Source: a plasmid. Taken from it: a stretch of DNA of 64,000 bases. The stretch lies in sequence record NZ_CP118990.1; one strand, written 5' to 3'. The notes below the pieces were generated by a model. That model saw only the letters and a program-made list of their open reading frames with translations. It was not told the DNA's origin and searched no databases. Within the stretch, counting starts at the first letter, position 1. The number at the start of each line of letters is the position of its first letter. The position numbers were made by a program, and so were the translations under genes. Shown here one piece after another: positions 5,807 through 61,680 of the stretch.

Positions 5807-7891
5807 TTATCTCATCAACTGGGGAAGGGAGGGGCGTTGCAGCAGGGTCTGCGCCAGATAGCTCAGCTTGACTTGCCAACGTTGCCAGCGGCTCGACTTG
5901 CGGCCGGATGATTGACCTTGCGTGGCCAGTTGGCGGATCAGCTGCTCCGGACTTATCCAGAGTCCGCTCTGCCAATCGATATAGAGCGGATAGGCCACCA
6001 GGGTCAGATAGACCAGTGCCGCCAGGGGGAGCGAGCGCTGGCGCCGGGCCGGGGGATGGGCATCCGTGGTCAGTCCCCAGCCGCTGTAGAAGGGCTGGCC
6101 CCAGGTCGTCACCTTGACCCCTTGCACCAGCGCCTCGAAGCCGCTCAGGGAAGTCATGGTGTGCAGCTCGTCCACGTGGGGATAGAGGCTGGTCAGGCCG
6201 ATATCCAGCACCTGGCTGTCCACACACTCCGCCAGGCAGGCCGCAGAAATCGCCCCGGCCCGATTGCCCGCCACCACATCCGGGTGGGGCTTGTAGAGAA
6301 TGTGGGCCTCTGGCTTGGCGGCGCGCACCGCCCACAGCAACTGCTCGTTGCTGCGAATGGTCGGGCTGCCGGTCAGGATGGAGGCATCCCCATCCACCTG
6401 GCCCACCACCAGCACCAGGGGACGGCCATCGGCGGGAGGCGTGAAGTGCGCCGGGGCGCCGACATTGTATTTGCTCACCTTGTTTTCGCGCAGCAGGGTG
6501 AGCAGTTGCTCGCCCCGGTCGAGCTGTGACCGGGTCAGCTCCTGATAATTGAGCAACTGTTCGAGTCCACTGGGGCTGCGGCTGTCGAAATAGATCCCGA
6601 CCGGATCCAGCGACAGGGAAGAGGGGCGGCACAGGTTGGAGCCAAGCCCCCTGGAGCGGATAAAGCCATCTTCCACCCGAATGGCCGAGGTGAGCTCGGG
6701 GTAACGACTGCCCCATACCAACACCTGTTCATCCCCGGTCAGCCGTTTTGGCGGCTTGCGCACAAAACAGAGTTCCTCAGCTAGGGGCTGGCAGAAGGCC
6801 TGCATAAAGGCACGTTTCCACAAGGAGAACCCCACCAGATAGAGCCTGCGCCAGCGGGGAGCGGCCTTCTGCTGGCGGGCGATGATGGCGATCACCTCTT
6901 CCACCTCGCAGCGTTGGCCAAGCACGGGATCCAGATAGCGGGGATAGCAGATCAGCGCCGCCGCCACTAGCTGGGCCAGTGAGACCTGAACGTTGCGGCG
7001 TTCGCACGGTTTGCTGTCCTGGGTCAGACCCCAACCCGCATAAAACGGCATGCCGAAGCAATACACCGATTTGCCGAGCAGCAGCGCCTCGAAGCCGAGC
7101 TGGGATGACACTGTGTAAACGGCATCCACCAGGTTGAGCAGGGCATGGGGATGACAATGGTCAGCAACGATCTCTACATCCCTCAGTTTCAGTCTGGCCA
7201 GCACGCCACGCTTCTTACCAAAGCGGGTGTCCGGGTGGGTGCGAAGCAAGAGGCGGGCATCGGGATGATTGCGCCGCGCCGCCTCCACCATGGCGATAAA
7301 GTCCGCCTCGCTTGCCAGAGCGCCGGGAATGGAGAGATCCCCGGCCACCTGATCCACCAGCAAGACCCTGGGCCTGCCATCTTGCTGCAGGCGCTGGGCC
7401 AGTGCCACAGGCAGCCCGGCGACATCCTTCGCCGTCAGGCTGGTCGCCGAACAAGAAGAGAGAGAGGCGGGTCGCCCGGCATAGCAGTTGTATTTGGTGA
7501 CCCCAAGGCGCACCAGCTCATGGACAAGCCGCTCGGCTCGCGTCAGCATGGCGGCATCACAGGGAGTGGCGATCAGTTGCTCTAGCTGGCTGGGCTGGCG
7601 TGCATCGTAATAGATACCGACCGGATCGGCGATAAGGGACACCGCCTTGCCGCCCTTGGCCGGATGGCCGATATAGCCAATAAAGCCATCTTCCAGCTGC
7701 CAATAGGGCAGGCCCAATTCCTGTGCTTTCTGCTTAATCTGGCGGGTATTGGCTTTTTGGCCCCAGCCGATGCAAACATCTTCCTCTGCGGGAATGTCGG
7801 AAGAGGTAAGACGTTGCAAGGGCTGATTCAGGCACGCGCAAAGTTCTTGAGCGCGTGCCACCATCCCAGATGATGTTGTCCATAGCGTCAT
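5807..7891 (-). CDS. kpsC: capsule polysaccharide export/biosynthesis protein KpsC (two-domain beta-Kdo transferase)
   Basis: 694-aa ORF with duplicated KpsC/KpsS-like halves. It lies immediately upstream of kpsS on the same strand. Confidence 0.8.
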   Translation of the reverse strand: MTLWTTSSGMVARAQELCACLNQPLQRLTSSDIPAEEDVCIGWGQKANTRQIKQKAQELGLPYWQLEDGFIGYIGHPAKGGKAVSLIADPVGIYYDARQPSQLEQLIATPCDAAMLTRAERLVHELVRLGVTKYNCYAGRPASLSSCSATSLTAKDVAGLPVALAQRLQQDGRPRVLLVDQVAGDLSIPGALASEADFIAMVEAARRNHPDARLLLRTHPDTRFGKKRGVLARLKLRDVEIVADHCHPHALLNLVDAVYTVSSQLGFEALLLGKSVYCFGMPFYAGWGLTQDSKPCERRNVQVSLAQLVAAALICYPRYLDPVLGQRCEVEEVIAIIARQQKAAPRWRRLYLVGFSLWKRAFMQAFCQPLAEELCFVRKPPKRLTGDEQVLVWGSRYPELTSAIRVEDGFIRSRGLGSNLCRPSSLSLDPVGIYFDSRSPSGLEQLLNYQELTRSQLDRGEQLLTLLRENKVSKYNVGAPAHFTPPADGRPLVLVVGQVDGDASILTGSPTIRSNEQLLWAVRAAKPEAHILYKPHPDVVAGNRAGAISAACLAECVDSQVLDIGLTSLYPHVDELHTMTSLSGFEALVQGVKVTTWGQPFYSGWGLTTDAHPPARRQRSLPLAALVYLTLVAYPLYIDWQSGLWISPEQLIRQLATQGQSSGRKSSRWQRWQVKLSYLAQTLLQRPSLPQLMR

Positions 7892-14164: not shown

Positions 14165-17100
14165 TCAAAAATCACTCACAATTTCATTATCGGTATGCTG
14201 AGTAAATACAGGCCTCAATGTCCCGCTCAGTGAATCATTTTTGGCAAGCAGCAATGCTGACTGCATTCTCTCCCAGCAATGCTCTGGTGCCTGGGTAGGA
14301 TAGAGTCGCAACAACTCTCGCCAGCACATGGCAGCTTGTTGCCAACGGCCATTCAAGTGAGCGACCTCAGCCTTGAGTATCCACTCATCCATATTGCAGG
14401 GGGGGCGGGTGCTTGAATTATCCAGATATTTCTGGGCTGGCTCTATTTCACCGAGCATCCGCAGTGCCAAGGCAAGCTTGTAAGGGGCATCATCCAATAC
14501 ACCAATTAGCGATGGCCAGATATCGGCAGCCATATCCCAGCGCTCGGCCATTAATACGATTTTACCAGCCTCAGTCATGATATTTAAATCAGCTGGATGG
14601 TTGGCTAGCAGCCATGTCACCATGTCGATTGCCGAGTCTAACTGTTTAGCCATTCTCAACGATTTTAAATAGATGGCTACCATAGAAAGTGGTAAATCGT
14701 TACGGTTGGGGAAGGCTTGGGCAAGCTGTCTATAGGCTTTTGTGAAATCATTTCGCGCGAAGGCAAGCAGCGCTATTTCACGGCGGCAGGTACTATCCGA
14801 TTTGGTGTGCTTCTCAAAGCCAAGCAATTGCTGATGCGCCGCATCGAATTCGCCGAGTTCGCGATACGCCTGAGCGAGCAACAATTCTGGTTTCAGCGTG
14901 CGCAACTCATCAGGGGTAAATTGCACGATCATGTTTGACAACAGTTCAATGACCTGCTGCCATTCACCCTTGGCCGAATCGATAATGGCGGTGCAGCACA
15001 GTTGTTCGTGCTTCGACAGTGAGCTGAATGTGGGCGATGATATCTGCTGTGATACCCCTACCCAATCCTCCATCGCAAGTTGGCAATGCAGATGCCGGGT
15101 GGGTGTATATCCTTCACCACTTGATTGCAACTCGGCCCAGATGCACTCTGCTTGCTCCCATTTGCTGTTGGCCATCAGAAGCTCGGCTTTTTCTGCCTGA
15201 GCTTCGTGGCTCAATGGCAAACTGCGCACGGCTTGCCGTGCATCATATTCGTCGAAATGGCACCACGCTTCACTGAATTTCCCTTGATTACGCAGGCTGG
15301 TTGCCAAGCCAAGACAGGCTGCACCATGATGGGTCTCATCCATCAGCGCATATATCTGTGACCAGCGCTGCTCTGCCAATGGCCATATTTTTGCCTTGCT
15401 GGCCTGTTTTGCATACTCCAGCAATATCGGCATATTAATAATCTCGGGGTTGCGTGGTGCATCGAGCTCCTTGATCGCCTGATAGACTCGCTCGCAGTTT
15501 TTCCCATCCCGGTAAGGAAATGTTTTTAAAATTCTGGTTAATATTTTTTCGCTTGGCTTTCCATCATTGGATAGCATTTCTTCCAGCTCAGCGAACAACT
15601 CCTGCTGATTTGTTACAACAGGGCCAAAACCATGTTTTCGATAATCGTAATATCCTTTGGTATACAAATGATCGCCGCTGAAAAATGATTCCTCGTCAAA
15701 TTGATAATAAATATTGGGTTTATCTAATATCGCCATATCGAAGGCCACCGAAGAGTAGTCGGTGATCATCATGGCCGCGCGAGAGAATACCTGCTGGATG
15801 GGCGTCGTGTTATTACTCATTACCTCAATATAATCGGGAACATTAAAGAGATCTAGATATGGGGCAACATTTGAATGTGGATAGAAGGCGACCCTAAAGT
15901 CAAATTTTTCAACAAGTCGCTTCAGTAATGGAGAATGCAAGACCTCAAACCAATGCAGGGCATATTCAGTCTGCATAAAATCAGGGTTGATCCGTCGTTC
16001 ATTACCATTTTTGATGACATCACCGACTAAATTTTTACGCCACGTAGGCATGATTACAATAAGCCGCTCAGTTATATTCTCACTACGTAGCAGGGCATCA
16101 TGACGCGGGAAGCCGGTTAATACAACATCTTTGCTTGTGAATTTGTATGGGCTGCCATCGCTTACAATAGAATGATATTCATCAGGCGTGGCGGTGATAA
16201 AGCAATTGATGGCTTCTTTGGTATTTAGCCAGCTAGATAGATTATCTTTAGTGATGCCATGCTGAAGGAACACGAGATGACGGCCAGCCAATGATCTTGG
16301 GCCAAAATAATTAGATACGTATTTGTCAATATGTGAACTTATTATTTTTTGGCAAGATCGTAAAGCGACTTCATGTTCATCGCTGCCAAAGGCAAGCATA
16401 TTAAACCCTTCAGCGGATAAGCGTTGCCAGTCACTGGAAGAAGATTCAAGCACAAAATAGATATCTTGCTCAGGGTGATGGTTTTTAATGTAGCGGTACA
16501 GATGTTCTGCATTATCATCTGCCTGCGTATTGCGATCCATCAGTAGCCAAGAATATTGGTATCTTTTATCGATCTTGTAGTTTGGTTTTTGTGACTTGAA
16601 GTGGGATGCGATTTGGCTATAAGAAACACCATTGTTGTGCTGCTTGCCAGCCAATGATACACGTGCCGCCATGTTACCAATGGAGACTTTCAAGGTGGCG
16701 TTTGATACTTGCTGTTCGGATGAAATGGGTACCCAGATTCTGCGCTCAATAACAAACGAATCGCCAAGGAATTCATGTCCCATGCTCTTGGCAAAGCATG
16801 GCATGACATCTACACCACCAATATTAAACGCTTCTAGGCCAACATCTCGCGTGAAATAGCGAAGCTCAACCATGCCTTTTATATGATCGAATGCTTCGAT
16901 ATAGACAATCTGGAGTGCAGGGTCTATTTTCTTGAATAATCCAAGAAGTGCTACTTTGTGGTAGAACCAGCATCCAGCCAGCTCAAACTCCATAATGGTG
17001 TCAACATCAATATGGGTAAATAATTCAGTCACTAATGACTTGAATCTGTTTATTTCCCCCTCAGAGAGGAAGGCAAGAGTATGCTTATTGTTAACCAAAC

Positions 17101-18046
17101 GCTTGAAGTACCATATCAAATGATAAAGTACTGTTCGCTGAATATGCTTAGGTACATGACCTTGAGTGTTGATATATCGATTAAACATATCAATACAGCC
17201 GTGAACCAAGACATCATCATAAAGTCCTTTCTTCTCCCAAGCACCATCAAGGGTTGAGCTGCCATCGCTACGCTTTCTGTAATAATATTTAGCCTTACTG
17301 ACAAAGCCGACATTGCCATCATTAAAGTCAGATAAATAACAACCTACAAAGTGAGCATCTTCAAAACTTGGTTTGATTTTGCTACTGAATCCAATATTTC
17401 TGTTTAGAATAATATCGCTTTTGAATACCGCAGTGCTGGCAGACAACTGCATATTTTTACCCAAGTTATTAACAGGGGTTACTATGTCTCCTTTACTGAA
17501 TCGATATCTAAGAGGGTGGGTATCTTTATATATTTTTTCATCTTCAAAGTACAAAATGAAATTATTGCAAAGCATTACGACATCATTATTTTTTTGCTTG
17601 TGAGCAAAAAGGTCTATTTGGTAAAAATAATCCTGATCCAGAATATCATCCGGGTCAGTAAAGGTTACCCACTCGGTATTGACGTGCTGCATACCCAAGT
17701 TACGGGCAGATGCCTGACCACCATTTTCTTTATAAAGATATTGAATGTTATCAGGGTATTTTTTTTGCCATTTTTTGATGATGGCGGCGGAGTCATCCGT
17801 AGAGCCATCATCCACCAGAATAAGGTGTATATGCTTTTTAAAGTCCAGGCGCTGTTTGGTGACACTTGTAATATACTCATCGAGATAGCGGCCAACATTA
17901 TAAACGGCAGAGACAATGGTGTACTGATAATGACCATTGATCTCTTTCGGTTTTAGCGCGTCGATACTATGGCGTCTCTTTATCGCCATATCGGCAAAAA
18001 ATGACTTGGGATCACGCATTAATTTACGAAATTTTCGTTTAAACAT
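14165..18046 (-). CDS. 1293-aa multidomain capsule synthase: GT2 glycosyltransferase plus TagF-like glycerophosphotransferase-like region plus C-terminal TPR repeats
   Basis: N-terminus [17 protein letters not shown]...[12 protein letters not shown] is a GT-A/GT2 DxD-type motif. The middle region carries LQHGITKD, which resembles the TagF-family HG(T)P(L)K motif. The C-terminal third is repetitive and helical, like TPR repeats. Confidence 0.5.
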
Positions 18047-19145
18047 GTTGGCTCTCGCTTAAGAAAAATTGTTGCAAAGTTAACTTTATTTTTTCGTTAC
18101 TTATGGTTTTATCTTTTGTATTGAAATCGTTGGCACAAAATGAATGAGGTAAGGTACCATTCTTTTTTGATAAATGCAGAGCATTGAAATAACTAGCGGC
18201 AGCTGGCGAGCGAATATTAAAGTAATAACAAATATCCCTGGCCAATACGGCAGATCCATCCAGATAAGTAAACCAAGGCACTAAAAAGGTTGCCATATTT
18301 AGATCGTTATTCGCTCTGAACTTATTTGGTAAAAAGCTATTTATTTCATGCTCAAATGTTTGCCAGCATTTTAGATATAGGCTTTTCCGTAGTGGCACAT
18401 AGGTATGTACCAGTGGGGAGTCGAGAGCTTCGCCATCAAACTGCTGGGCCAGCAAAGATCTGCCTGCTAGCGAGGCCTTTAATGTTGGTGTTGGGTTTCC
18501 CTTCTTATGCATATCATCCAGACTTTTTTGTGAAATAAAAAGTGAGGCGATACCATTGCTCTTGAAAAAATGCCCAACAGGAAGAGGGCGGGCAACAAAT
18601 ACATCGTCATTGAAATAAATAAAATGCTCTGCCAGTCCACAAATATGGTGCAGATGTGCCTCTATCACATGGGAGTTGAAGGTAGGCAAATACTGTGCGG
18701 GTATAATATCTTTGTGATCAACAAATTTGACTCGCTTGTCATGATTTTCATCAAGCCATGCAGGGCGCTGGTTGTCGGTCACAATAAATATATTTCGAAC
18801 CCACGGGAGGTATTTTATGACACAGCGAAGAGAATATTTTAGCTCATCATGATTACTAAATCTGGCTGGATCTTTGGCATGAAGGCCCGTCTCTTCACAG
18901 TATGTTTCCCGGCAATGGTTATAACGAGCTACCCAGTTTTGATCTTTGTCATCTACCCAAGTAAAGACTACGTCAACCGGAAAATTGACGGAAATTTTTT
19001 CCTCTATCGCTAAATCATGCCGCATCAGGATGTTCTCTTCCTCTTCGCGACAGAATATTTCATTTCTAAAAACCGGGTAGCGTTTATTCAGATGATCCCG
19101 GAAAAAAACACCGGGATTTTTGAAGAATTTCTTTATCTTTCTCAT
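18039..19145 (-). CDS. Stealth-family capsule hexose/polyol-1-phosphate transferase
   Basis: [14 protein letters not shown] matches the Stealth CR1 motif (IDVVYTWVNGSD-like). Length and position in region 2 fit. Confidence 0.55.
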
Positions 19146-23235: not shown

Positions 23236-25011
23236 TTAGTTGATGGCTACGTTCGCCGCCACGGCGATCTGATAGATGATCTGGGTAATGTCTTTGACAG
23301 ACTGCATGGTTTTGCTGTCAACCTTGGGCAACACCATGATCTGATCCCCTGGCTGAACATTCCCCTGGCCCTTGAACTCCACCAGCCCGTTGGCATGGAC
23401 CACGGCGATGCGCTGATCATTGGCTCGTTCGGTAAACCCACCAGCCCAGGCGACATAATCATCGAGGTCGGCATTGGCGTTGTAGACCACGGCTTGTGGC
23501 ATCAATACCTCACCACCCACCTGGATAAGGTCAGTCTTGTTCGGGATCACAATCTGGTCGCCTTGCTCCAGCTGAATGTTGGCGATGATGCCCTTGTCGG
23601 CGACGACGACCTTGCCCAGAGGCTGAATCTTGCGGGCCTTGTCCACAAACTGCATGACCAGCTCGGCCTCTTTGGCACGGATGGTCGCCTCACCATCCGA
23701 ACTGGCCGGCGCGGTGAATACGCTGCGCTCCAGCCGGTTGAGCGACTCATCCAGCATCTCTTTTTGCCGGATGGCCACGCTCTTTCGCATCAGATAGATG
23801 GATTGGTAATCGGCCAGATCCGGATTGATCGGAATGTGGTTGAGCAGATCGTGCAGTTTGGTCTCTTTGCGGACGGTGAAGTAAGAGGGTCCCATATAAC
23901 TGCCGGTGACCTGCACATCGTAAACTTGTGCATGCATGTCATCGTTAAACAGCACCTTGTCGCCGTCCTTGAGTTGGACCTGGGCAAAATCTTTGTAAGG
24001 CAGATAAATAGAGAAGGGACCGTTTGCACGATCACCAATTACTCCGACATGACTCACCTTGGCGAGGGGCAGGGCATAATTGATGAGCTCAGAGCCCTGC
24101 GTATTGCGCTGCTTTAATTCGAAGCGGAATGGATTGCGAACCTTGCCAGCCACATTGATCATCGGCCCCTGGGGTTCCACCAGGATCACATCCTGATCTT
24201 TCAGGGAAAGCTTGGGCATTTTGCCCTTCTGCATGAATTCATACAGGTCGATCTGCTGGAGGACCTGGTTTTGGCGCAAGACCTTGATTTGACGGTAGCT
24301 GCCACGCTCTGAATCGATGCCACCCGCCCGCTTGAGGAAATAGAGCACGCTGTCAGACGATTGTCCGGCATATTGGCCTGGGCGGATCACCGGCCCTGTC
24401 ACGAATACACTCACTGGTGTTGTCGTCAGCAAATTGACGTAAATGTTGACGTTGTTGGTGAATACATCACCAATCTTGCTGGTTACCAGATTATTGATTT
24501 GGCTGGCAGGAACATTCTTGACATTGATGGGGCCAACATCAGGGATGAAAATATTGCCCTGATTGTCGACCGTTACCACATTGGAGAAATTGACGGCGCC
24601 CCAGATCCAGATATTCAGCTTGTCACCTGGTGCTATCAGGTAATTGTCATTCAAGCCATCACTGCGTTCGGTTTCATATCCACCTGCAAAGAGGTTGGCG
24701 CCGTAGGGGGGAGGGAGTCCGGCCTCGGCCTGTGGCAGTAATTTCCGCACATCGGCCTCACCTGGCAGCAACATGCCTTGCCGATTTTGTTGCGCAAAAC
24801 TGCCGGTTGTTGAACTTGTGCTGGCTTGACCACTCAGCGATGACTGGCCGCCAAGTTGGGGCCGATTGTTATCCCCTGAATTACCCGACAGGTTATAGCC
24901 AAATGATGCCCCATTTGCCTGGGCCTGGTCCGGTGCACTAGCCGCCATGGTGGTGCAGGAGGCACTGATGAGAAACAGGAGGGTACTCAGATGACGAACG
25001 TTCATTTTCAA
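23236..25011 (-). CDS. kpsD: periplasmic/outer-membrane polysaccharide export protein KpsD (Wza-like)
   Basis: 591-aa ORF with a signal peptide MKMNVRHLSTLLFLISASCTTMAA. It has a polysaccharide-export (Poly_export/SLBB) architecture and precedes kpsM. Confidence 0.75.
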   Translation of the reverse strand: MKMNVRHLSTLLFLISASCTTMAASAPDQAQANGASFGYNLSGNSGDNNRPQLGGQSSLSGQASTSSTTGSFAQQNRQGMLLPGEADVRKLLPQAEAGLPPPYGANLFAGGYETERSDGLNDNYLIAPGDKLNIWIWGAVNFSNVVTVDNQGNIFIPDVGPINVKNVPASQINNLVTSKIGDVFTNNVNIYVNLLTTTPVSVFVTGPVIRPGQYAGQSSDSVLYFLKRAGGIDSERGSYRQIKVLRQNQVLQQIDLYEFMQKGKMPKLSLKDQDVILVEPQGPMINVAGKVRNPFRFELKQRNTQGSELINYALPLAKVSHVGVIGDRANGPFSIYLPYKDFAQVQLKDGDKVLFNDDMHAQVYDVQVTGSYMGPSYFTVRKETKLHDLLNHIPINPDLADYQSIYLMRKSVAIRQKEMLDESLNRLERSVFTAPASSDGEATIRAKEAELVMQFVDKARKIQPLGKVVVADKGIIANIQLEQGDQIVIPNKTDLIQVGGEVLMPQAVVYNANADLDDYVAWAGGFTERANDQRIAVVHANGLVEFKGQGNVQPGDQIMVLPKVDSKTMQSVKDITQIIYQIAVAANVAIN

Positions 25012-27092: not shown

Positions 27093-30000
27093 ATGAAAGC
27101 GATGCTGGGGAGTGGGTCCGTAGGTTCTGGTGCCAACTTGGCTTACCCAAATGGTGTTCAGTCACAACATCGATTGCTATTCAATGTGAAAGACCGGGCC
27201 GGGAACAGCTCGACAAAGCAGTTTGAGTTTTATAACAACTCCGCTTGTGGGAGTGAGGAACCGACGCTCGTTGCTATTGAAGATCCCACCTACAGTGGCG
27301 CTTACCTTGGCCTTAGCGCATTTCAGGGTTTTCGTCAGACCAGTGGTAGCACCCCCATCAACAAAAACCCGCTGAAAGCGGTATATCGTATCCCCCGGTC
27401 ACAATACCGCGGGCTTCCAGAGGGGGCTATTTTCGGTGGGCTCCCTGCTGGGATCACAGATCGTGGATTGGCGCACACTGATTCTCAGTATGCCTATGTC
27501 GTTGTTGAAGGTCCCGCTGGTCCTGATGGTACATTCAACTGGACTAACTACGGCTGGACAAACAACTCTACCTGGCGATGCAGCCCATTGCGGGTCCCTA
27601 ATCCTCAATTCACATCAGAAACAATCCCACCTGATTGGAAATCCATTAGTGCATACGTTGACGGTGTAGGTTGGGTTGGGAGCAGTTATGGTGCGCCTGG
27701 CACGAAGCCAAAACCGCCGAGAGATACGAAAATATCGCAAATTAAGGTTAGTTTGGAACCTAGGGTTTATACCCAAACGGTCTCCATGTATGGCAGTTCA
27801 TGCGAGGTTGCACCGAACCAATCAGAGTGCACAATGGCGGTAAATATACCATTCAACCAGACCGGAACGGCAAGCTATTACCATACGAGACCTGCGGCGC
27901 AGCACAAGAATATTCCAGGCCTGCTGTCTCAATTCAGCCATGTTTGGGAGTGGGATGCAGAGGACCCGCATATCCAGGAACTTGTGAGCCGGGATGACCA
28001 AAATAAGATCGTAACATTTACAGCTTTTGAAGGGCATACCGGGGCGACCTGGGGGAGGGTCAAGCTGGCAGCAGCCGGGCTTGTTGCAAAAAAAAATGGC
28101 GTTGATGTCGAATCGTTCTCAGCAACAAGTATCAACACCTCGGGTAATGACTCCACTGTAGTGGTCTCCTACAAGGGCCTTGCCGACGGTGTATATGACA
28201 TCTACGGCTGGGTGAATGATGCCTACGGCAACCGCAGTGAAACGAAATTCTTTACCATTACGAACGACAATACACCTCCTTCGATTGCTATCACGATTCC
28301 GAGCGGAAACAATGTTGAATCATTAGATAACATCCTCATTGATGTGACTGACGGAATGACGGCCAAGCCCACTGTGACGATGGTCAATCTCAAGGGGGGG
28401 CCAGCATCGGACGATGTTTACCTCACAGTCCGAGCAGTGTCAGATACTCGATTCAAGCTCGAATACCCCGTCATGTTCCCTTCTTTAAAGGCTGGGGAGA
28501 GTTACACGCTTTCAATAGAGGCGAAAGATGCTCAGCAAAACACAGCTAAAGCATCAGCTCAGTTTGAATACAAACCTCAGCAAGTGACGCTGGCGGACGG
28601 GATGGATGGCAAGGTCATGATCCCGGCCGTGACGCAGGAGTTTACCCACGCTGACGGCAGCAAGATCATCGAGACAAAGCCGCTGACCCTCAATGATGGC
28701 TCCACGGTGACCGGCTCCTATGACGTGTTCGCCACACTGCGGTCTGATGCCAAAGTACCGCTCGTGGTCAACGGGGTGCGTATCGAACCGGGCCAGACCA
28801 TGGGGATCATGAGCCAGCACAACTTCGGGGCCTCCGGTGGACGCCTGAGTCTCTCTGTTAAACCTGCGGTGGCCGATGTTATCGGCACTTCCGGCCTGCT
28901 GGTGATGACGGCGGCGCCCAACTCCCCGATCCTGGTGCTGGACGTGACCACCTGGAAGCCGACGGCGAAGCTCTCCGCGGAGTCATGGACGGTGCGCCAG
29001 GTGATTGACCCGGTAAAGATCTTCGCCCTGCCGGACGCCGGTGTCCCCTGCCGCTTCACTTCCAAAGAGGATGAGGCGAAGCGTTCCGACCCGATCCGGG
29101 ACCCGGTGTGTCTGTTGCAGTGGGACCGCACCCCGGACGAGGCCGAGCAAAGCACCCAGGAGACCGAAGGCCTGAAACTGGCGGGTCTGGTGGGCCAGGC
29201 GGTCAGCCTGGGTGAGCAACCTGTCGAGTACAGCCTCTACCTGTTTAGCGGCGACGGCTCCAAGGTTAAGGTAGGCGGCGGCAACCGCAATCTGACTGTC
29301 ACCACGGCCTACGGCTCGGTGGGCTATACCCCCGGCCCCGAGTTGGCGCAGGTCAACCGCATCATTGAGAGCTTCGACGTGCGGATGAGCCAGAACCTGG
29401 GTCCAGCGTGTTCGATGACGCTGAGTGCCGATCAGGCGAAGAAGGATGCGGCCAACAAGGCCTCCGGCAGCATCAGCCGTACCTGCCTGTTTGAATGGCA
29501 GGCCATCCCGGATGGGCTGATGCAAGACCAGAGCACCACCACCCCCGGCCTGAGCGGTACTTTGGCCGATAAAAAGGCACACCCCGTCGGCTGGCGGGTG
29601 AGCACCTACAGCAAGAACGGCACTCGCGTGACCCTCAACGACCAGACCTTTACCATCGATGCAATAGACCCCCCGGTGCCGACCGTGGATTTGTCCTCAA
29701 AGTACAAATTCCGGGACAACATCTACATGGTGCCAATGCAGGGTGACTACCTGGGGGACGCGACGATCACCGCCGAGCGGGCGGACCTGGACGTGGCGAT
29801 CATGCGCAATACCGACACCCTGGAGTCGGAGACCTTCACCCCCGGCTGGGGCGCCAACACCAAGGTCTACCGTCGGCTGAACACCGACCAGCGGGCTCTG
29901 TGGGAGGAGACTACCTATAAGGTGAAGGCGGCCTACAACAAGGTGCCGGAGGTGAAGACCGAGGCGGTGTACCGGGCTGTGTCGGTGCCGTCCTACAACC

Positions 30001-32000
30001 TGGTGCCGGTGGTAGAGGTAGCTGGCGACACAGCCATCGACACCCAGGCGCTGCCGGTGCGGGTGAAGATCCAGGATCAGTACAAGCCGAACGAGGCGTT
30101 TGACGCGACCGCGATGGGGACCTGGAAGGTCAGGTTGATCCGTCAGATGGCGTACAACAAGACCGAGGTGCTGACCGACTTTGCCAACGCGCCGAACGGT
30201 GAGGCGAGCTTTGCGGTGGATCTGTCAAAAGTGGACACGACCTCGGTGCGGATCGTGGCTGAGGCGGAGCTGGTCTCGCCGTTTGAAGGGTACACCCGGA
30301 CAGTGCAGTCCACGCGGCCTGCGTTCCTGACTGTGCTGCGGGGCGGAGCTATCGGGGCGGAAGTTGACGCCCGTCGGCTGTCGGGCGAGGCGCCGTTCAC
30401 GGCGGTGTTCAAGCTGGCGCTGAATGACCGTCAGGACTACCGGGCGACCGGGGACGTGGTGTGGGATGTCAGCAGCGACGGCGGGGCGACCTGGGAGAGC
30501 TCCACGCCTGAGGAGCGCTACAAGTACCAGATGGTGAAAGTGTTCGAGAAGGGGACCTACAAGGTGCGGGCCAAGGTGATCAACCGCAACTCCAGCGCCG
30601 CGGCGTATACCGAAGTGGTGGACGTGATCGCTTATGACAAGCCGAAGCTGGAAGTGAAGGGGCCGCAAACCCTGTTTGTGGGCAGTGAGGGCACGTTCTC
30701 GACCCGGCTGACGGTGAAGGATGAGGAGATCGGTGCAGATAACGCTGTGGTGGAGTGGTCAACCGATGGTGGGAAGACCTACGACAAGCAGGGCCCGACG
30801 CTGACGCTGAGCAGCGACAAGGACACCCGGATCAAGCTGTGGGCACGGGTGCGCTCCGGGGATGCCCCTGCGGACGATGAGTATGCCTACCGGGTGGCGA
30901 AGACGGCGGTGGAGTTCCGGGTAGTGAAACCGCCACGGCCGTATGTGTCGGGGCCGTCGGTGATCGAGACGGGCAAGACCTACACCTTCAAGGCGACGAA
31001 CAGCCTGCCGTACAAGGGGATGGATGTGCAGGTGAAGGGGGTCTTCGTTCTGCCGAACGGGCAGCGGGTGGACGGTGACACGGCGCAGTACACGCCGAGC
31101 GCGGAGGATCTGACCAGGGAGCGGGTAGAAACCAGCTACACCGCCTGGATAGAAGGGTTCCGGGAGCAAGGGGCAGAAGCGACACACTCGATGTACTCTC
31201 GCGTCTGGGAATACGTGTGGCCGCGGTTCGGGATGCAGGTGCGCAGGACGGCGAACGTGGCGCCCGCGGCGATCACCATGACGGCACGGCCAATCGGGTT
31301 CTCGGGCAAGCTGGACGAGGCGGTCTACGAGTGGACGTTGCCGGAAGGCGCGACCATTGAAGATCAGAAGCAACCGGCTGTGCGGGTGTTCACAATGGGC
31401 CGTGCGGGCGAATACCTGGTGAAGCTCACGGTGCGGGATGCTCGGGGCAACGAGACGGTCCTGGAAGAGCCGGTGAAGTTGGGTGAAGCCGAGCAGTACG
31501 TGATCGACCTGCAATACTCCGGCTCGAATGCCAACGATCGGGAGCCGCTGGATGTGCTGTTGCGGCCGTACATCTCGGGCGGTCACCCGCGAGACCGGAT
31601 CCAGACCAGGCAGTATACGGTGGACGGCAAGCCACTGGAGAGCGCGGGGTTCTATGGTCGCACGACGTTGCAGGCAGGTGAGCACCAGATCATGCTCAAG
31701 GCGACGTCGGAGATGGGCAAGAATGTCGAGGGCAAGCTGATGCTCAAGGTGGCGGAGAACAAGCTGCCGACGTGCACGGTGCGCAGTCGGGAGACGATCG
31801 GTTCGTGGATTGTGTACGCGGGCTGCGAGGACTCGGATGGCCGGATGAAGTCCTATCAATGGACGGTCGGGGGTGAGGTGCAGGCCATCACAGCGGACCG
31901 TCTGACGATCAGCAAGGGCAAGAGCGGTGTGATGCCGCCGATAACGCTGGTCGGGGTGGATGACTCCGGTGGTAAGTCGGAGTCAGTATCCCTGAACTGA
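27093..32000 (+). CDS. giant (1635 aa or longer) Ig-like/BIG-domain surface protein, 5' end apparently disrupted by the ISAs1 insertion
   Basis: Long ORF rich in T, V, G, S and D with repetitive beta-sandwich-like segments. The reading frame stays open upstream of the first ATG right back to the IS end, reading ...DGQLYGTGKVTYYNAEMKAML. Confidence 0.5.
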   Translation: MKAMLGSGSVGSGANLAYPNGVQSQHRLLFNVKDRAGNSSTKQFEFYNNSACGSEEPTLVAIEDPTYSGAYLGLSAFQGFRQTSGSTPINKNPLKAVYRIPRSQYRGLPEGAIFGGLPAGITDRGLAHTDSQYAYVVVEGPAGPDGTFNWTNYGWTNNSTWRCSPLRVPNPQFTSETIPPDWKSISAYVDGVGWVGSSYGAPGTKPKPPRDTKISQIKVSLEPRVYTQTVSMYGSSCEVAPNQSECTMAVNIPFNQTGTASYYHTRPAAQHKNIPGLLSQFSHVWEWDAEDPHIQELVSRDDQNKIVTFTAFEGHTGATWGRVKLAAAGLVAKKNGVDVESFSATSINTSGNDSTVVVSYKGLADGVYDIYGWVNDAYGNRSETKFFTITNDNTPPSIAITIPSGNNVESLDNILIDVTDGMTAKPTVTMVNLKGGPASDDVYLTVRAVSDTRFKLEYPVMFPSLKAGESYTLSIEAKDAQQNTAKASAQFEYKPQQVTLADGMDGKVMIPAVTQEFTHADGSKIIETKPLTLNDGSTVTGSYDVFATLRSDAKVPLVVNGVRIEPGQTMGIMSQHNFGASGGRLSLSVKPAVADVIGTSGLLVMTAAPNSPILVLDVTTWKPTAKLSAESWTVRQVIDPVKIFALPDAGVPCRFTSKEDEAKRSDPIRDPVCLLQWDRTPDEAEQSTQETEGLKLAGLVGQAVSLGEQPVEYSLYLFSGDGSKVKVGGGNRNLTVTTAYGSVGYTPGPELAQVNRIIESFDVRMSQNLGPACSMTLSADQAKKDAANKASGSISRTCLFEWQAIPDGLMQDQSTTTPGLSGTLADKKAHPVGWRVSTYSKNGTRVTLNDQTFTIDAIDPPVPTVDLSSKYKFRDNIYMVPMQGDYLGDATITAERADLDVAIMRNTDTLESETFTPGWGANTKVYRRLNTDQRALWEETTYKVKAAYNKVPEVKTEAVYRAVSVPSYNLVPVVEVAGDTAIDTQALPVRVKIQDQYKPNEAFDATAMGTWKVRLIRQMAYNKTEVLTDFANAPNGEASFAVDLSKVDTTSVRIVAEAELVSPFEGYTRTVQSTRPAFLTVLRGGAIGAEVDARRLSGEAPFTAVFKLALNDRQDYRATGDVVWDVSSDGGATWESSTPEERYKYQMVKVFEKGTYKVRAKVINRNSSAAAYTEVVDVIAYDKPKLEVKGPQTLFVGSEGTFSTRLTVKDEEIGADNAVVEWSTDGGKTYDKQGPTLTLSSDKDTRIKLWARVRSGDAPADDEYAYRVAKTAVEFRVVKPPRPYVSGPSVIETGKTYTFKATNSLPYKGMDVQVKGVFVLPNGQRVDGDTAQYTPSAEDLTRERVETSYTAWIEGFREQGAEATHSMYSRVWEYVWPRFGMQVRRTANVAPAAITMTARPIGFSGKLDEAVYEWTLPEGATIEDQKQPAVRVFTMGRAGEYLVKLTVRDARGNETVLEEPVKLGEAEQYVIDLQYSGSNANDREPLDVLLRPYISGGHPRDRIQTRQYTVDGKPLESAGFYGRTTLQAGEHQIMLKATSEMGKNVEGKLMLKVAENKLPTCTVRSRETIGSWIVYAGCEDSDGRMKSYQWTVGGEVQAITADRLTISKGKSGVMPPITLVGVDDSGGKSESVSLN

Positions 32001-32073: not shown

Positions 32074-32095
32074 CGCTGGATGTGACCAAAATGGG
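32074..32095 (+). promoter_or_regulatory. CTGG-N-CCAAAA box upstream of dsbC-like gene, related to the core of the six R modules
   Basis: CGCTGGATGTGACCAAAATGGG resembles the R-module core GCTGGTCGCCAAAAACAAACAGC. Confidence 0.3.
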
Positions 32096-32157: not shown

Positions 32158-32883
32158 ATGGGGGTAAACATGCTTGGAAAAATTCTTGGGGGGCTGATGG
32201 TGCTAGGGGTCACAACCATCCCGGCTCCATTGGTTGCAGCCTCAAAGCTGGAAATTACAGATCCCAGGGCGGCCAAGATCAAGGAGATTGTGACCCTGCC
32301 CATCAAGGGGATCAGAGCAGTCGAGAGTGATGGTCAGATCGTCTTCATCTCAGACAACGGTAGGTTTGTCATTACAGGGCAGATTTACGATGTGTGGGGT
32401 AAAAAACCCCTCAGCTCGATGTCGGAAATGCGTGATGTCGCCGACCGCTTGCATCTCCAGGATATGGGAATGGATGTTGATAAGCTGAACACCATCTCGT
32501 TCGGGCATGGGCCAAAGGATGTGGTTCTGTTTGTCGATCCACGCTGCGGTGTCTGCCACAAGTTGATTGGTGAGGCCAAGCCATTGGCTGAGGAATACAC
32601 CTTCAAGATCGTCGTTATCCCTGCCCTAGGGGATGAATCAAACCAGCTTGCCAAAGCGCTGCACTGCGCGAAGGACAAAACCAATGCGCTGGATGCGCTC
32701 TTGAATAACACCCTGGGTGCTCTCCCGTCAAAATCGCCATGCGATCCCGCTCAATATGACCAGACCCTGATGACAGCCCACCTGATCGGTATTCAGGGGG
32801 TGCCTTTCGTCGTTGCACCCGATGGACGTGTAAGCAAGGGACGCCCTAATAACCTGAAAGCATGGTTGGAGAGTGCACAATGA
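32158..32883 (+). CDS. dsbC: DsbC-like thiol:disulfide interchange protein of the conjugative element (s054/dsbC-like)
   Basis: Signal peptide, the CGVCH thioredoxin-fold active site and DsbC/DsbG architecture. Located immediately upstream of traC, as in SXT/R391 and IncA/C elements. Confidence 0.75.
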   Translation: MGVNMLGKILGGLMVLGVTTIPAPLVAASKLEITDPRAAKIKEIVTLPIKGIRAVESDGQIVFISDNGRFVITGQIYDVWGKKPLSSMSEMRDVADRLHLQDMGMDVDKLNTISFGHGPKDVVLFVDPRCGVCHKLIGEAKPLAEEYTFKIVVIPALGDESNQLAKALHCAKDKTNALDALLNNTLGALPSKSPCDPAQYDQTLMTAHLIGIQGVPFVVAPDGRVSKGRPNNLKAWLESAQ

Positions 32884-41885: not shown

Positions 41886-41912
41886 AAGGGAGGCATGATG
41901 CCTCCTTTTTTA
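41886..41912 (+). terminator. rho-independent terminator after traN
   Basis: AAGGGAGGCATGATGCCTCCTTTTTTATT. Confidence 0.8.
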
Positions 41913-41934: not shown

Positions 41935-42600
41935 AGCCCGCCAGCCGGGGGATCATGGCCGGGGGCCTGCGGCGGCCCCGGTTCCCGAGCGGCGGCGGCC
42001 GATGCCGGTGCGGCTGGATGCCGGAGCTCGCCCACCAGCCGGGGGATCATGGCCGAGGGCCTGCGGCGGCCCCGGTTCCTGAGCGGCGGAGGCCGGTACC
42101 GGTGCGGCTGGGTGCCGGAGCTGGCCCGCCAGCCGGGGGATCATGGCCGGGGGCCTGCGGCGGCCCCGGTTCCCGAGCGGCGGCGGCCGATGCCGGTGCG
42201 GCTGGATGCCGGAGCTCGCCCACCAGCCGGGGGATCATGGCCGAGGGCCCGCGGCGGCCCTGGTGCTCGATGGGCAGCAGCTGGTGGTGGGTATGGGGGG
42301 GGGGCCCGGAGCCGCCAGCCGGGGGGGATCATGGCCGAGGGCCCGCGGCGGCCCCGGTTCCCGAGCGGCGGCGGCCGATGCCGGTGCGGCTGGATGCCGG
42401 AGCTCGCCCACCAGCCGGGGGGGATCATGGCCGGGGGCCTGCGGCGACCCGGTAGCCGGTTCCAGCTCGGTGCCCTGGTGCTCTATGAGCAGCTGCCGGT
42501 GGACGGAGCCAGAGCTGGCTCACCAGCTGGGGGGATCATGGCCGGGGGCCTGCGGCGGCCCCGGCGAGCCGGTTCCCGCTCGGCGGTGGTCAGAGTGGGT
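41935..42600. repeat. tandem array of about 7 copies of a 94-bp, approximately 80%-GC repeat (last two copies degenerate)
   Basis: CCAGCCGGGGGATCATGGCCG recurs at 41941, 42035, 42129, 42223, 42317 and 42411, with a diverged copy at 42521. Units 1 and 3 are identical. The 94-bp period is not a multiple of 3. Confidence 0.85.
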
Positions 42601-42621: not shown

Positions 42622-42652
42622 TAAAAAAATGGCCGCTAACAGATGGCGGCCA
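42622..42652 (-). terminator. rho-independent terminator of the minus-strand lipoprotein gene
   Basis: The minus strand reads TGGCCGCCATCTGTTAGCGGCCATTTTTTTAT. Confidence 0.7.
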
Positions 42653-42667
42653 GAGAAGGGGCGATGT

Positions 42668-43549
42668 TTAAGAAGGATAAACAAAGAGCTCGGGTTTACC
42701 CTTTTCAAGCAGATATGGGAATTGGACCTTATCACCACTTTCCATAGTGACTTCTTTCGGAGCTAGATAGATGAAGCCCCAAGTCGGGAGGTTTTGGCTG
42801 ATTTTGGCATAGACAGCTTGTTCAGGAGCATGGCTTGCTGCGCCATTTGTGACATTGATGAAGTTAAACTGCGTTTCATGACCGGAAGTGAAGGCATACG
42901 CATCCCCTTGAACTCCAGTAATGAACGCTGGAGCTGTGCCCCGACTCGGTTCTACGACACGTACCTTGATGGAGCACATATCCGAAACCTTACTTTTACC
43001 ATTGATCCAAGTCGGGCAGCCCCATTCGTTCTTGTAAAATTGGTACGTCAGGTTGCCATCTTTGTCGTAGAGCAGAGTGAACTGCGCTCCTAGATCGGTC
43101 AGCGATGACTCGACAGAAAATTTCACATGTGAAATAAATTTGGCTTGAGCGTCAGCGGGAGATGCAGCCTCGCTTGCGGGCATCCAAGCAAGCAGGCTGT
43201 TACGGGAGCCATGCTGCTTGGGACCTATTGCCCAGTTAGCTAAATTGACCAGCCCGCCCTGCCAGTCAGATAACCCACTAACGCTCGGGGAGATATAGCC
43301 AGAGAGCACATAGGCGGCCCCAAAGGTTTTGGTATCTGTCAGTCGCTCCAACTGATCGCGTGGAACAGACGCATCCTGAATCCCTGTTTTCAGGTCACCG
43401 GCCTCGGCAATGTTGAAGGCGCGGCTGTGGTCAGTTTTGTAAGTTGCCGGTTCATAGCGGGCGCTCGTGCTTGCGCAACCAGAGAGCGTAGTCATGCACA
43501 GAGCTGTAGTGGCGATCAGTATCTTATTCATTACGTTCTCCTTACTCAC
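42668..43549 (-). CDS. lipoprotein of unknown function (variable region after traN)
   Basis: Lipobox MNKILIATTALCMTTLSGC. The start is probably the MNK methionine at 43531. The gene contains the 14-bp palindrome TTTCACATGTGAAA at 43121-43134. Confidence 0.55.
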   Translation of the reverse strand: MSKENVMNKILIATTALCMTTLSGCASTSARYEPATYKTDHSRAFNIAEAGDLKTGIQDASVPRDQLERLTDTKTFGAAYVLSGYISPSVSGLSDWQGGLVNLANWAIGPKQHGSRNSLLAWMPASEAASPADAQAKFISHVKFSVESSLTDLGAQFTLLYDKDGNLTYQFYKNEWGCPTWINGKSKVSDMCSIKVRVVEPSRGTAPAFITGVQGDAYAFTSGHETQFNFINVTNGAASHAPEQAVYAKISQNLPTWGFIYLAPKEVTMESGDKVQFPYLLEKGKPELFVYPS

Positions 43550-44359: not shown

Positions 44360-44454
44360 GATAAGGATAAAGAGATTTTTTTCGTAATCAGATCGCTCAA
44401 GTTGCCCAAAATGGACACCTACAGCGTTTTCTATCCGAAATAGATCCGCTATAT

Positions 44455-44520: not shown

Positions 44521-44615
44521 TGCTATGTGCCATCTGGCATTTTTAAACCCCACACCGGGGGCGTACTCCCGGTTATCGGGTGTTGCCCCTGTAATACCTT
44601 TCAGGAGTAACACCA

Positions 44616-44977
44616 TGCACATCATCACTTTCATTGCTGTTCTGTTCGTCGCTCTGGGTATGCTTTTCATCGGCGCGAAGGTCTTTGCACTTTCGTTTGT
44701 TGCCCTTGCCAAGCTGTTTCAGCGCGTCGGCTTGTTCCTCTGGAACAAGCTCCCAGTCGCTTCGATTGGTTTGTTCCTCAAGAACAAACTTGTCGAGCCA
44801 GCAATGCGGTCTTTGAAGGCCGTCATAACAAAGAACGTAGCCAAAGCCCGCAAGCCCAAAGCTACTGTTGTGTTTGAACCGCAAGCATTTAATGTTCCGC
44901 GTATTGATTTCGAGCTGGCCTATCCGGATCTCGATGTCCCTGCGTACTTGCGTAAGGGTACCAATATCGTCTGGTAA
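44616..44977 (+). CDS. small membrane protein (120 aa)
   Basis: The true start is ATG 44616 (MHIITFIAVLFVALGMLFIG), preceded by an AACCC GC-hairpin leader and an AGGAG RBS. The ORF call of 44525 is an upstream extension. Confidence 0.5.
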
Positions 44978-60055: not shown

Positions 60056-61680
60056 ATGGCTACTATCGTTAACACCAAATTAGGGGAACATCGGGGCAAA
60101 CCGCGTGTGTGGCTGGAAGGCTACAAGCTGTTGCGTGAAGGCTACTCGCCTGGCACTAAGTTCGATCTGGAGTTGAGAGACTCTCAAATCGTTCTTCGGG
60201 TCAAGGAAGAGGGCAAGTTCACGGTCAGCAAGCGGGAGCGTAATGGCCGTGTCACCCCCATCATCGATTTGAACGCGCAGGAGCTCGCTACCGTCTTTGA
60301 CGGGGTTGAGATGCTCCGGGTGTTCATTCGTCAAGGCGCGATTCTGATCTCTGCTCATCATCAACATGAGCGAGTCGTTGAGCGTGTCAACCGCCTCACC
60401 AGCAAACTGGAGAAGGGAGAGCCTCTTTCGGTATGCAGCCTCTTCCATGGGGGCGGTGTGCTGGATAAAGCGATCCACGCGGGGTTTAAGAGATCGGGTA
60501 TCGCAAGCTCTATCGCGGTTGCTGTCGAGATGGAAGGGTCATATCTTGACTCGTCCCTCGCCAACAACCCTGAGCTGTGGGATGAAAACTCGATAGCTAT
60601 TGAGTCACCCATCCAGGCCGTGAACCTGAGCAGGAATCCCACGCAATGTGAGATCGTGATCGGCGGGATCCCCTGCACTGGAGCTTCTAAGAGTGGTCGT
60701 AGTAAGAACAAACTGGAATATGCCGAATCCCACCAGGATGCCGGAGCACTGTTCTTCAACTTCCTTGAGTTTGTCAAAGCTCTCAATCCAGCAATGGTTC
60801 TGATTGAGAACGTTCCCGAGTACCAGAAAACCGCCAGTATGGAGGTGATCCGGTCTGTGCTCTCCTCGCTAGGATACTTCGTGCAGGAACGCATACTCGA
60901 CGGTAATGAGTTCGGTGTCATTGAATGTCGCAAGCGTCTTTGCGTCGTTGCGCTTTCCCACGGGATTGATGGGTTTGACCTTGAACAGGTTCAGCCAGTC
61001 CGTACCAAAGAAAGCTGCATCAAAGACATTCTTGAGCCTGTCCCACTCGATTCTCAACGTTGGAAGTCATTCGACTATCTGGCGGATAAAGAATTGAGGG
61101 ACAAGCCGCAGGTAAGGGATTCGCACGTCAGCTCCTGACAGGTGATGAAGCTTTCTGCGGCACGGTAGGCAAGGGGTACTCAAAGTGTCGCTCAACCGAG
61201 CCGTTCATTGTTCATCCGGAGCAGAGTGAGCTATCCAGGCTCTTCACCCCAGCCGAACATTGTCGGATCAAGGGGATACCCGAGGAGCTGATTGATGGCC
61301 TGTCGGACACGACTGCTCACGAGATCCTCGGGCAGTCGGTTGCTTATCCTGCGTTCGAGGCCTTGGCCTCATCGCTTGGTAACAGCCTCTGGAGCTGGAG
61401 AGGTATGAAGCCACTCATAGTTGAGCTGGTGGATGATTCTCAGCCGACTATCGGTGGAGGAGACTTCCATTGGGCAACTGCTCTGGTTGACCTGAAAGGT
61501 ACCCTCACGCTATCGCCGACGGCGAAAAAGCTGGGGATGCCTATCCACGTTCGGGACGGCCAACTGGCCGTTTACTCCCGCACTGGTTCGAAGACAAGCC
61601 ACGGCCATGCGCCATGTGAGTATCTCCCGGTCATGCAGTCCGGAGATGCGATCATGGTTCAGTCGTCGCTTGTCCATTAG
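60056..61680 (+). pseudogene. DNA cytosine-5 methyltransferase (Dcm-like) split by a frameshift near 61090-61138
   Basis: Frame A (60056-61138) carries motif I-like LFHGGGVLD, the PC motif GGIPCTGAS and the ENV motif LIENVPE. Frame B (61090-61680) carries motif IX/X-like SRLFTPAEHCRIKGIPEEL and GQSVAYPAFEALA. The two frames overlap by about 48 nt. Confidence 0.6.

Follow-up and report, generated by a model that had tools for sequence, protein, structure and literature searches.

The window analysed here, a stretch of 64,000 nucleotides from the plasmid sequence record NZ_CP118990.1, contains a GC-rich tandem repeat array between traN and a convergent gene for a lipoprotein-like protein (Table 1). 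The array is composed of seven head-to-tail units, which can be divided into four regular units, one variant and two degenerate units. Tandem Repeats Finder placed 5.5 copies with a period of 94 in a single array at 41936-42450 (score 726, 82% matches), and nhmmer with a unit profile detected seven units in the window. The same number was obtained with the 31-nt core GATCATGGCCGGGGGCCTGCGGCGGCCCCGG at up to three mismatches, which starts at 41951, 42045, 42139, 42233, 42327, 42423 and 42534, i.e., at spacings of 94, 94, 94, 94, 96 and 111 bp. No further copy of this core was found elsewhere in the 64 kb, and it had 0 matches in 100 shuffles. Each unit contains a single GATC, and unit boundaries are given in the GATC register. 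The original prediction, made from the sequence alone, of about seven copies of a 94-bp unit is supported by both searches, including the identity of units 1 and 3 and the degeneration of units 6 and 7, and unit 4 is recognised as a variant type.

The GC content of the array is 0.79 (0.74-0.81 in 200-bp windows), which makes it the highest-GC stretch of the whole window (mean 0.513, standard deviation 0.082 in 200-bp windows). The extreme composition of about 80% stated before thus agrees with the measurement. The contrast with the flanks even exceeds the earlier estimate, because the value of about 60% assumed for the surroundings was wrong: the immediate flanks have a GC content of 0.42-0.50 (42-50%, against 51% for the window).

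In database searches, the window was closest to conjugative Aeromonas plasmids of the pAsa4 family (MOBH, MPF_F), with 91-92% identity over 21 kb, and the closest relatives overall are also pAsa4-family Aeromonas plasmids, at 91-99% identity. With IncC plasmids, the identity is 77-80% and extends over parts of the backbone. By these matches, the replicon is a pAsa4-like, IncA/C-related conjugative Aeromonas plasmid. In SXT/R391 elements, the interval between traN and s063 constitutes hotspot HS4 (PMC3850215), and synteny with IncC and pAsa4 plasmids shows that the array position corresponds to HS4. The earlier assignment to an SXT/R391-type hotspot therefore holds for the position, but not for the element, which is a pAsa4-type plasmid. 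The occupancy of this interval differs between relatives. In IncC plasmids, the same two convergent genes are only 38 bp apart and share one terminator, and Aeromonas veronii pHX3 has six small cargo genes at the traN-proximal position, with a degenerate unit at each side of the cargo. A second array-bearing hotspot of the backbone is located downstream of topB.

The array starts 67 bp past the traN stop codon and about 30 bp past the traN terminator hairpin, which is conserved in pAsa4b, pAsa4c, pHX3 and the related locus L005. The right limit of the array region is the terminator hairpin of the convergent gene, which is conserved in pAsa4c and pHX3. The two terminators converge and the array therefore fills the gap between them, occupying DNA that is predicted to be transcriptionally insulated. 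No sigma-70-like promoter was predicted within the array. Phase variation, which had been considered as a possible function, finds no basis at this locus, as the array contains neither promoter nor gene and is bordered by terminators at both sides. A link to one neighbouring gene was rejected as well, since the downstream gene varies among arrays (lipoprotein-like, DUF4238 or topB).

Table 1. Positions of the features of the array region, of other genes of the window and of the Tn7-like elements found in related arrays. Positions refer to the window unless another locus is named.
Feature	Position	Strand	Basis or remarks
traN, 924 aa	39095..41869	+	Upstream backbone gene; open reading frame (ORF); TraN annotation in homologous plasmids; PF06986 on the equal-length product in L022
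traN terminator hairpin GGGAGGCATGATGCCTCCC	41888..41906	.	A-run before, T-run after, potentially bidirectional; sequence and terminator scan (minus-strand call)
GC-rich minisatellite, array region	41936..42600	+	Tandem Repeats Finder, core search, unit alignment, nhmmer
GCCGG pentamer at unit junction (CCA GCCGG GGGATC)	41944..41948	+	Recurs at every regular junction; placed by homology to target duplications of relatives
Unit 1	41951-42044		Regular, identical to unit 3
Unit 2	42045-42138		Regular
Unit 3	42139-42232		Regular, identical to unit 1
Unit 4	42233-42326		Variant type C, GGTGCTCGATGGGCAGCAGCTGGTGG...
Unit 5	42327-42422		Regular, 96 bp
Unit 6	42423-42533		Degenerate, 111 bp
Unit 7	42534-42600		Degenerate, terminal partial unit
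E. coli-type Chi octamer GCTGGTGG (read on minus strand)	42032..42039	-	Arises from the CCACCAGC junction variant
E. coli-type Chi octamer	42220-42227	-
E. coli-type Chi octamer	42408-42415	-
E. coli-type Chi octamer	42280-42287	+	In unit 4
Terminator hairpin GGCCGC-N9-GCGGCC of the convergent gene	42631..42651	-	Minus-strand T-run (plus-strand A-run 42623-42629); read from the sequence, absent from the terminator-scan list
Convergent 293-aa lipoprotein-like ORF	42668..43549	-	Signal ..LSGCAS, no Pfam family; backbone gene, present in IncC too
Capsule_synth	5807-7891	-
1293-aa Glyphos_transf + GT2 + TPR protein	14165-18046	-
Stealth protein	18039-19145	-
Poly_export/SLBB exporter	23236-25011	-
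205-bp mini-element, TGTGGGATGAAAATAAAGTTTCATCC...TTTTCATCCCAACA (end TGTGGGATGAAAATAAAG...)	L022 array		Target duplication GCCGG
325-bp mini-element, TGTAAGCGAGCATTAAAGG...CTCGCCTACA	pAsa4b and pKAM497_1 (L003/L004) arrays		Target duplication GCTGG
Third element type, AT-rich, about 870 bp, TGTGAATT...AATTCACA inverted ends	L016 398-1258		Target duplication GCCCG, other unit position

Distribution and turnover of the repeat family

A sensitive BLASTN search with the array against 72,556 plasmids returned 12 records, all from Aeromonas. Five true arrays were detected by a DNA-pattern scan of metagenomes, mostly at contig ends where assemblies break, and a protein search baited with an ORF of the array led to three further loci, of which L022 and L024 are draft or metagenome assemblies and L023 is a metagenome contig. 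Neither the 5,426 complete E. coli genomes searched nor viral contigs contained a match to the array. Two DNA-pattern scans of 185,579 reference genomes, with one genome per species, yielded 0 hits and 2 single hits, respectively; the latter are in high-GC genomes, were not inspected and are taken to be chance matches. The possibility that the array is a generic genomic repetitive extragenic palindromic (REP) sequence was rejected on the basis of these searches of reference genomes, E. coli and viral contigs. As far as seen, the family appears confined to IncA/C-related Aeromonas plasmids, where it is present at several variable positions. No donor sequence for the unit was found, and the hits of the protein-level search were confined to ORFs called within other arrays. 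No description of the repeat was found in the searchable literature, including the comparative paper on pAsa4 (PMC5088629). The kind of object, a bacterial minisatellite, is known.

Arrays downstream of traN are present in the window, pAsa4b, pAsa4c, the Aeromonas caviae plasmid CP121793, pKAM497_1, L013, L019, L022 and L024; L013 and L019 are syntenic with the traN side of the window. The topoisomerase III gene of the same backbone is carried by L018/L020 and L023. It is directly adjacent to the array in L023, and in L018/L020 it is separated from the array by 3.3 kb of variable genes. At this hotspot, pAsa4c contains methyltransferase, helicase and nuclease cargo instead of an array. Relics of 1-1.5 units adjoin the rep gene of pGSH8M-1-1 and are also found in the interval between a hipBA module and a tyrosine recombinase gene, both in an Aeromonas salmonicida plasmid and in the IncA reference plasmid pRA1. 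Some arrays are adjoined by IS1595 and ISApu2, and the flank of the L016 array was not readable. In the hipBA context, 27-bp repeats similar to ATAACCCCTGTGGGGGATATATCTAA are located upstream of a hipB-like helix-turn-helix gene (L006 3890-3975 and L032 9617-9703), adjoining a single-unit relic of the GC-rich repeat; these may be HipB operators.

The smallest arrays of the family have about 1.5 units and the largest about 14, and the period is 94, 95 or 96 bp. About 10 units are present in pAsa4c and CP121793, 9 in pKAM497_1, 1 + 4.5 in pAsa4b, only 1.5 in L005, L006 and L007, and about 14 degenerate units in L023. The closest relatives of the window differ from it by whole units. In L024, the flanks are 100% and 99.8% identical to those of the window, and the array is shorter by exactly 188 bp, corresponding to 2 units, with a clean in-register junction that joins units 3 and 5. 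The L022 array, whose flanks are 99% identical to those of the window, has 9 units and a 205-bp insert; it lacks a type-C unit and contains the pair of units 1 and 2 in one extra copy relative to the window. The prediction of a copy-number-variable minisatellite is borne out by these whole-unit differences.

Units are also homogenised within arrays. Unit identity is 0.83-0.93 within arrays and 0.79-0.91 between arrays (mostly 0.79-0.87), with the top between-array values found in closely related lineages, i.e., L024/window and L001/L002. Arrays diverge faster than their own flanks; between the window and pAsa4c, flank identity is 96% at the traN side and 90% at the downstream side. In-register gain and loss together with homogenisation is the pattern left by unequal exchange or slippage in a minisatellite. 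The array thus evolves by in-register duplication and deletion of one to several units and by concerted evolution of the units within each array, with the result that copy number and sequence change much faster here than in the flanking genes.

Tn7-like elements within the arrays and other cargo

Four independent Tn7-like elements with 5-bp target duplications were identified within arrays of the family, recognisable by TGT(G/A)...(C/T)ACA termini and internal 20-bp repeats of the TnsB-binding type. The 205-bp and 325-bp mini-elements are mutually unrelated, but occupy the same unit position (CCAGC[C/T]GG / GG..GATC) in the same orientation, and in both the compact, right-end-like terminus faces the upstream unit. 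The cargo of pHX3 starts with an L022-type right end in the same orientation, located 6 bp further along a degenerate unit, and the second degenerate unit follows beyond the cargo. The AT-rich element of L016 contains small ORFs. The window has no Tn7-like ends, and all of its GCCGG junctions are unoccupied.

Arrays are not the only targets of these elements. A 99.5% identical copy of the 205-bp element is inserted into a nuclease gene of pMCR5_045096 (duplication GTTCT), and a 98.5% identical copy of the 325-bp element is found near traM of pAsa_2939 (duplication TGTGC). In pKAM471_1, an autonomous tnsA-tnsB-tnsC-tnsD element inserted in merT is likewise headed by the L022-type end, and no autonomous tnsABCD element was present beside any array examined. 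A different tandem array in pRA1 (L032, NC_012885; 4507-5927), consisting of 7.7 copies of a 65-bp unit, carries a related Tn7-like mini-element of about 930 bp with the target duplication TCTAA. From this sequence, repeat arrays or neutral intergenic DNA may be favoured generally by mini-elements. The arrays are thus repeatedly hit at a preferred position, yet the elements are not restricted to them. This recurrent, site-preferring insertion of Tn7-like mini-elements is new here and was overlooked by the original prediction.

Outside the array region, the window contains a polysaccharide/capsule cluster of low GC content (down to 0.29) as cargo on the backbone (3600-25100, minus strand; see Table 1 for its main genes), at the edge of which an insertion sequence (IS) element encodes a DDE transposase with an N-terminal DUF4277 (1138-2751, minus strand). 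A protein of 1635 aa that combines Big_3_3 and PKD domains is encoded immediately upstream of the tra genes (27093-32000, plus strand); its counterpart in related plasmids is annotated as 'Ig-like domain-containing protein'. The backbone also has a gene for a C-5 cytosine DNA methylase (60056-61138, plus strand). A 'DNA cytosine methyltransferase' is annotated in pHX3 and in the Aeromonas hydrophila plasmid CP013966, both of which match the window at 30000-54999.

Interpretation of the array

The array is probably a non-coding, fast-evolving and dispensable minisatellite, i.e., a variable-number tandem repeat (VNTR), of pAsa4-like plasmids, which acts at cargo hotspots as a pad for insertion and recombination; the probability of this interpretation is estimated at about 60%. 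The arrays repeatedly receive Tn7-like mini-transposons and border swapped cargo. Judged from its relatives, the plasmid has no demonstrated need for the array, which appears dispensable because close relatives have 1.5-unit relics, other cargo or a 38-bp gap at this place. The main consequence of the array would be structural, in that it offers a neutral repeated stretch at cargo hotspots. Cargo could then be exchanged by homologous recombination between arrays, possibly aided by the Bet/Exo system of the plasmid or by host RecBCD at Chi octamers. Four of the 17 E. coli-type Chi octamers of the 64 kb are located in the array, three of them in the same orientation, and Chi octamers are missing from most units of pAsa4-type arrays. 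For the extreme GC content, GC-biased gene conversion in a recombining array or the later amplification of a foreign fragment are guesses.

Several observations weigh against such a neutral pad. Arrays with an identity of only about 80% still have units of 94-96 bp, and neither this nor the somewhat better-conserved 3' half of the unit is accounted for by a neutral satellite. The GC content is still 75-80% in the decaying L023 array, and a single plasmid lineage retains the family at several hotspots. The insertion of two unrelated mini-elements at the same unit position suggests that something in the unit is recognised. Finally, the copy-number differences between L024, L022 and the window rest on short-read or metagenome assemblies, in which partial collapse is possible.

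A rival idea is that the unit is an attachment-like site for Tn7-like transposons. The array would then offer them many copies of a safe landing site on a conjugative plasmid, by which the elements and their cargo could spread. A selector of the TnsD/TniQ type or a guide RNA would read the conserved 3' part of the unit and direct insertion at a fixed distance. In addition to the common position and orientation of the two unrelated mini-elements with GCCGG and GCTGG duplications, a coincidence that would have a chance of about 1 in 188 if insertion within a unit were random, this idea draws on the cargo end of pHX3, only 6 bp away in the same orientation and with a degenerate unit past the cargo, on the TGTG...CACA element with its 5-bp duplication in the L016 array, and on the L022-type right end of the autonomous tnsABCD element in pKAM471_1. 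A precedent is provided by Tn7-like elements that insert at a fixed position of CRISPR arrays (PMC11837452). However, both mini-elements are also inserted, with 5-bp duplications, into AT-rich or coding DNA that is unrelated and has no unit in its vicinity (pMCR5_045096 and pAsa_2939), the pKAM471_1 element lies in merT, away from any unit, and no autonomous tnsABCD element was found beside the arrays examined. Moreover, most arrays are empty, including that of the window, the L016 insertion uses a different unit position, and the mini-element in the 65-bp array of pRA1 points to a preference for repeats or neutral DNA rather than for the unit sequence. An attachment-like role is therefore unlikely, and it is quite unlikely that the unit is a dedicated att-like target of a Tn7-like family in Aeromonas and other Gammaproteobacteria, with the array as the landing pad at IncA/C-type cargo hotspots.

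A protein-binding array, as suggested before, could be centromere- or iteron-like or provide a gyrase/topoisomerase site between convergent genes. The 43-bp sopC repeats of F and the gyrase site of pSC101 par would be analogues. Such an array would have one site per unit on the same helix face, because 94-96 bp corresponds to about 9 helical turns, and the period is kept at 94-96 bp across diverged arrays. The relatively conserved blocks CCGGTACCGGTG and GCCGGAGCT point in the same direction, as do the invariable location of arrays between convergent genes and the topoisomerase III gene that adjoins two of them. Nevertheless, the sister plasmids IncC (38-bp gap) and pHX3 (cargo) are functional without an array, only 1.5 units are left in some plasmids, inserts interrupt arrays at no apparent cost, and the L023 array decays freely, with the GATC core lost in about half of its units. 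Conservation of the 3' half of the unit exceeds that of the 5' half only modestly, and neither a conserved hairpin nor dyad symmetry conserved beyond chance was found. Partition or replication genes are not adjacent to the array in the window, and only the 1.5-unit relic of pGSH8M-1-1 is near rep. A binding function is thus very unlikely, and two specific versions of it were rejected. Cooperative binding of SeqA to Dam sites would be hampered by the 94-bp GATC spacing, which is too wide, and by the GATC loss in L023. A decoy for the master activator AcaCD would require the AcaCD box TGCCCAAAWAGGGCA (PMC4207636), which is absent from the array. Elsewhere in the window, the best match to this box is TGCCCAAAATGGACA at 44403-44417 (plus strand, 2 mismatches), 108 bp upstream of the ORF at 44525-44977, and the ORF at 32158 is preceded by a weaker match at 32083; overall, the window has no more matches than expected by chance.

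Long ORFs on both strands, proteins predicted by gene callers in relatives and the 96-bp units of pKAM497_1 and pAsa4b, which equal 32 codons, could suggest that the array encodes a repetitive protein or a structured or regulatory RNA. The long ORFs are open because few stop codons are expected at 79% GC, and they differ in frame, strand and length between near-identical relatives, with disagreement between gene callers. The periods of 94 and 95 bp in the window and pAsa4c shift the frame from unit to unit, and no ORF product within the arrays contains a Pfam domain. A coding repeat was rejected on these grounds, and the earlier view of the array as non-coding, with ORFs as artefacts of composition, is upheld by the periods of 94, 95 and 96 bp among relatives. 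A structured RNA was likewise rejected, as folding of whole units was no better than that of shuffled sequences (z-scores of -1.6 to +0.7) and the array produced only sub-threshold hits in Rfam. A GGGGCC-N6-GGCCCC stem with apparent compensatory changes was dropped, since its mean z was -0.1 over 34 variants against shuffles. With no promoter inside and terminators at both flanks, an encoded product is highly improbable. The proposed propensity for G-quadruplexes or i-motifs was not found either: the array has 0 canonical motifs on either strand with loops of up to 12 nt, fewer than the 1.3-3.0 found in shuffles on the plus strand. The exclusion of a CRISPR array stands, because the units abut without spacers, no CRISPR direct-repeat family in Rfam matched above threshold, and the neighbours are traN and the lipoprotein-like gene.

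That the array is an assembly artefact is scarcely credible. Short-read assemblers could be misled by the identity of units 1 and 3, metagenome contigs mostly end within arrays, and L024 is shorter by exactly two units, but plasmid records of several laboratories, complete and circular, contain homologous arrays at this place, and every array has its own sequence variants.

As a minisatellite, the array provides a fast-evolving typing marker for pAsa4-like resistance plasmids of fish-pathogenic and clinical Aeromonas, and it marks a region that breaks or collapses in short-read assemblies. Variable DNA enters SXT/R391 and IncA/C elements at fixed hotspots, and the array links two such hotspots to Tn7-like mini-elements. 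If the preferred position reflects targeting, this would be a testable route for cargo acquisition. An attachment-like unit would explain how at least part of the hotspot cargo of this backbone entered, perhaps also that of the SXT/R391 and IncC relatives, and the pRA1 case would then suggest that these elements target repeat arrays, as a class, in general.

Among known systems, the array shares with REP sequences and bacterial interspersed mosaic elements (BIMEs) a high GC content and an extragenic location, often between convergent genes. REPs are, however, short palindromes present in hundreds of dispersed chromosomal copies, in contrast to a direct tandem array without palindromes that was not found in reference chromosomes. 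The centromere of plasmid F, sopC, consists of twelve 43-bp tandem repeats bound by SopB, and is likewise a plasmid-borne direct-repeat array with a period of whole helical turns. Unlike the array described here, which lacks adjacent partition genes and a conserved dyad and is dispensable in sister plasmids, sopC adjoins sopAB, has a conserved inverted repeat in each unit and is needed for stability. CRISPR-array-targeting Tn7-like transposons (Chacon Machado and Peters 2025, PMC11837452) resemble the elements in the arrays in their repeated insertion within a repeat array, at a fixed or preferred position of the unit, on plasmids and chromosomes. Those transposons are autonomous, use a dedicated truncated TnsD and target CRISPR repeats with spacers, whereas only non-autonomous mini-elements were seen here, which also insert elsewhere, and no selector protein is linked to the unit.

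The location of the array corresponds to SXT/R391 HS4 and to the variable positions of IncA/C plasmids, in that the interval from traN to the next conserved convergent gene contains varying cargo in relatives. The occupant in this case is a repeat array instead of genes, on a pAsa4-like plasmid, and some cargo has Tn7-like ends, in contrast to SXT hotspots, for which the route of cargo entry is not known. With the bacterial minisatellites or VNTRs used as loci for multiple-locus VNTR analysis (MLVA), the array has in common non-coding head-to-tail units, in-register gain and loss, homogenisation and the lack of a demonstrable function. It differs from them by its presence on a conjugative plasmid lineage rather than a chromosome, by a GC content of 0.79 in a replicon of 0.51, and by its occurrence at several cargo hotspots of one backbone, where it is repeatedly hit by Tn7-like elements.

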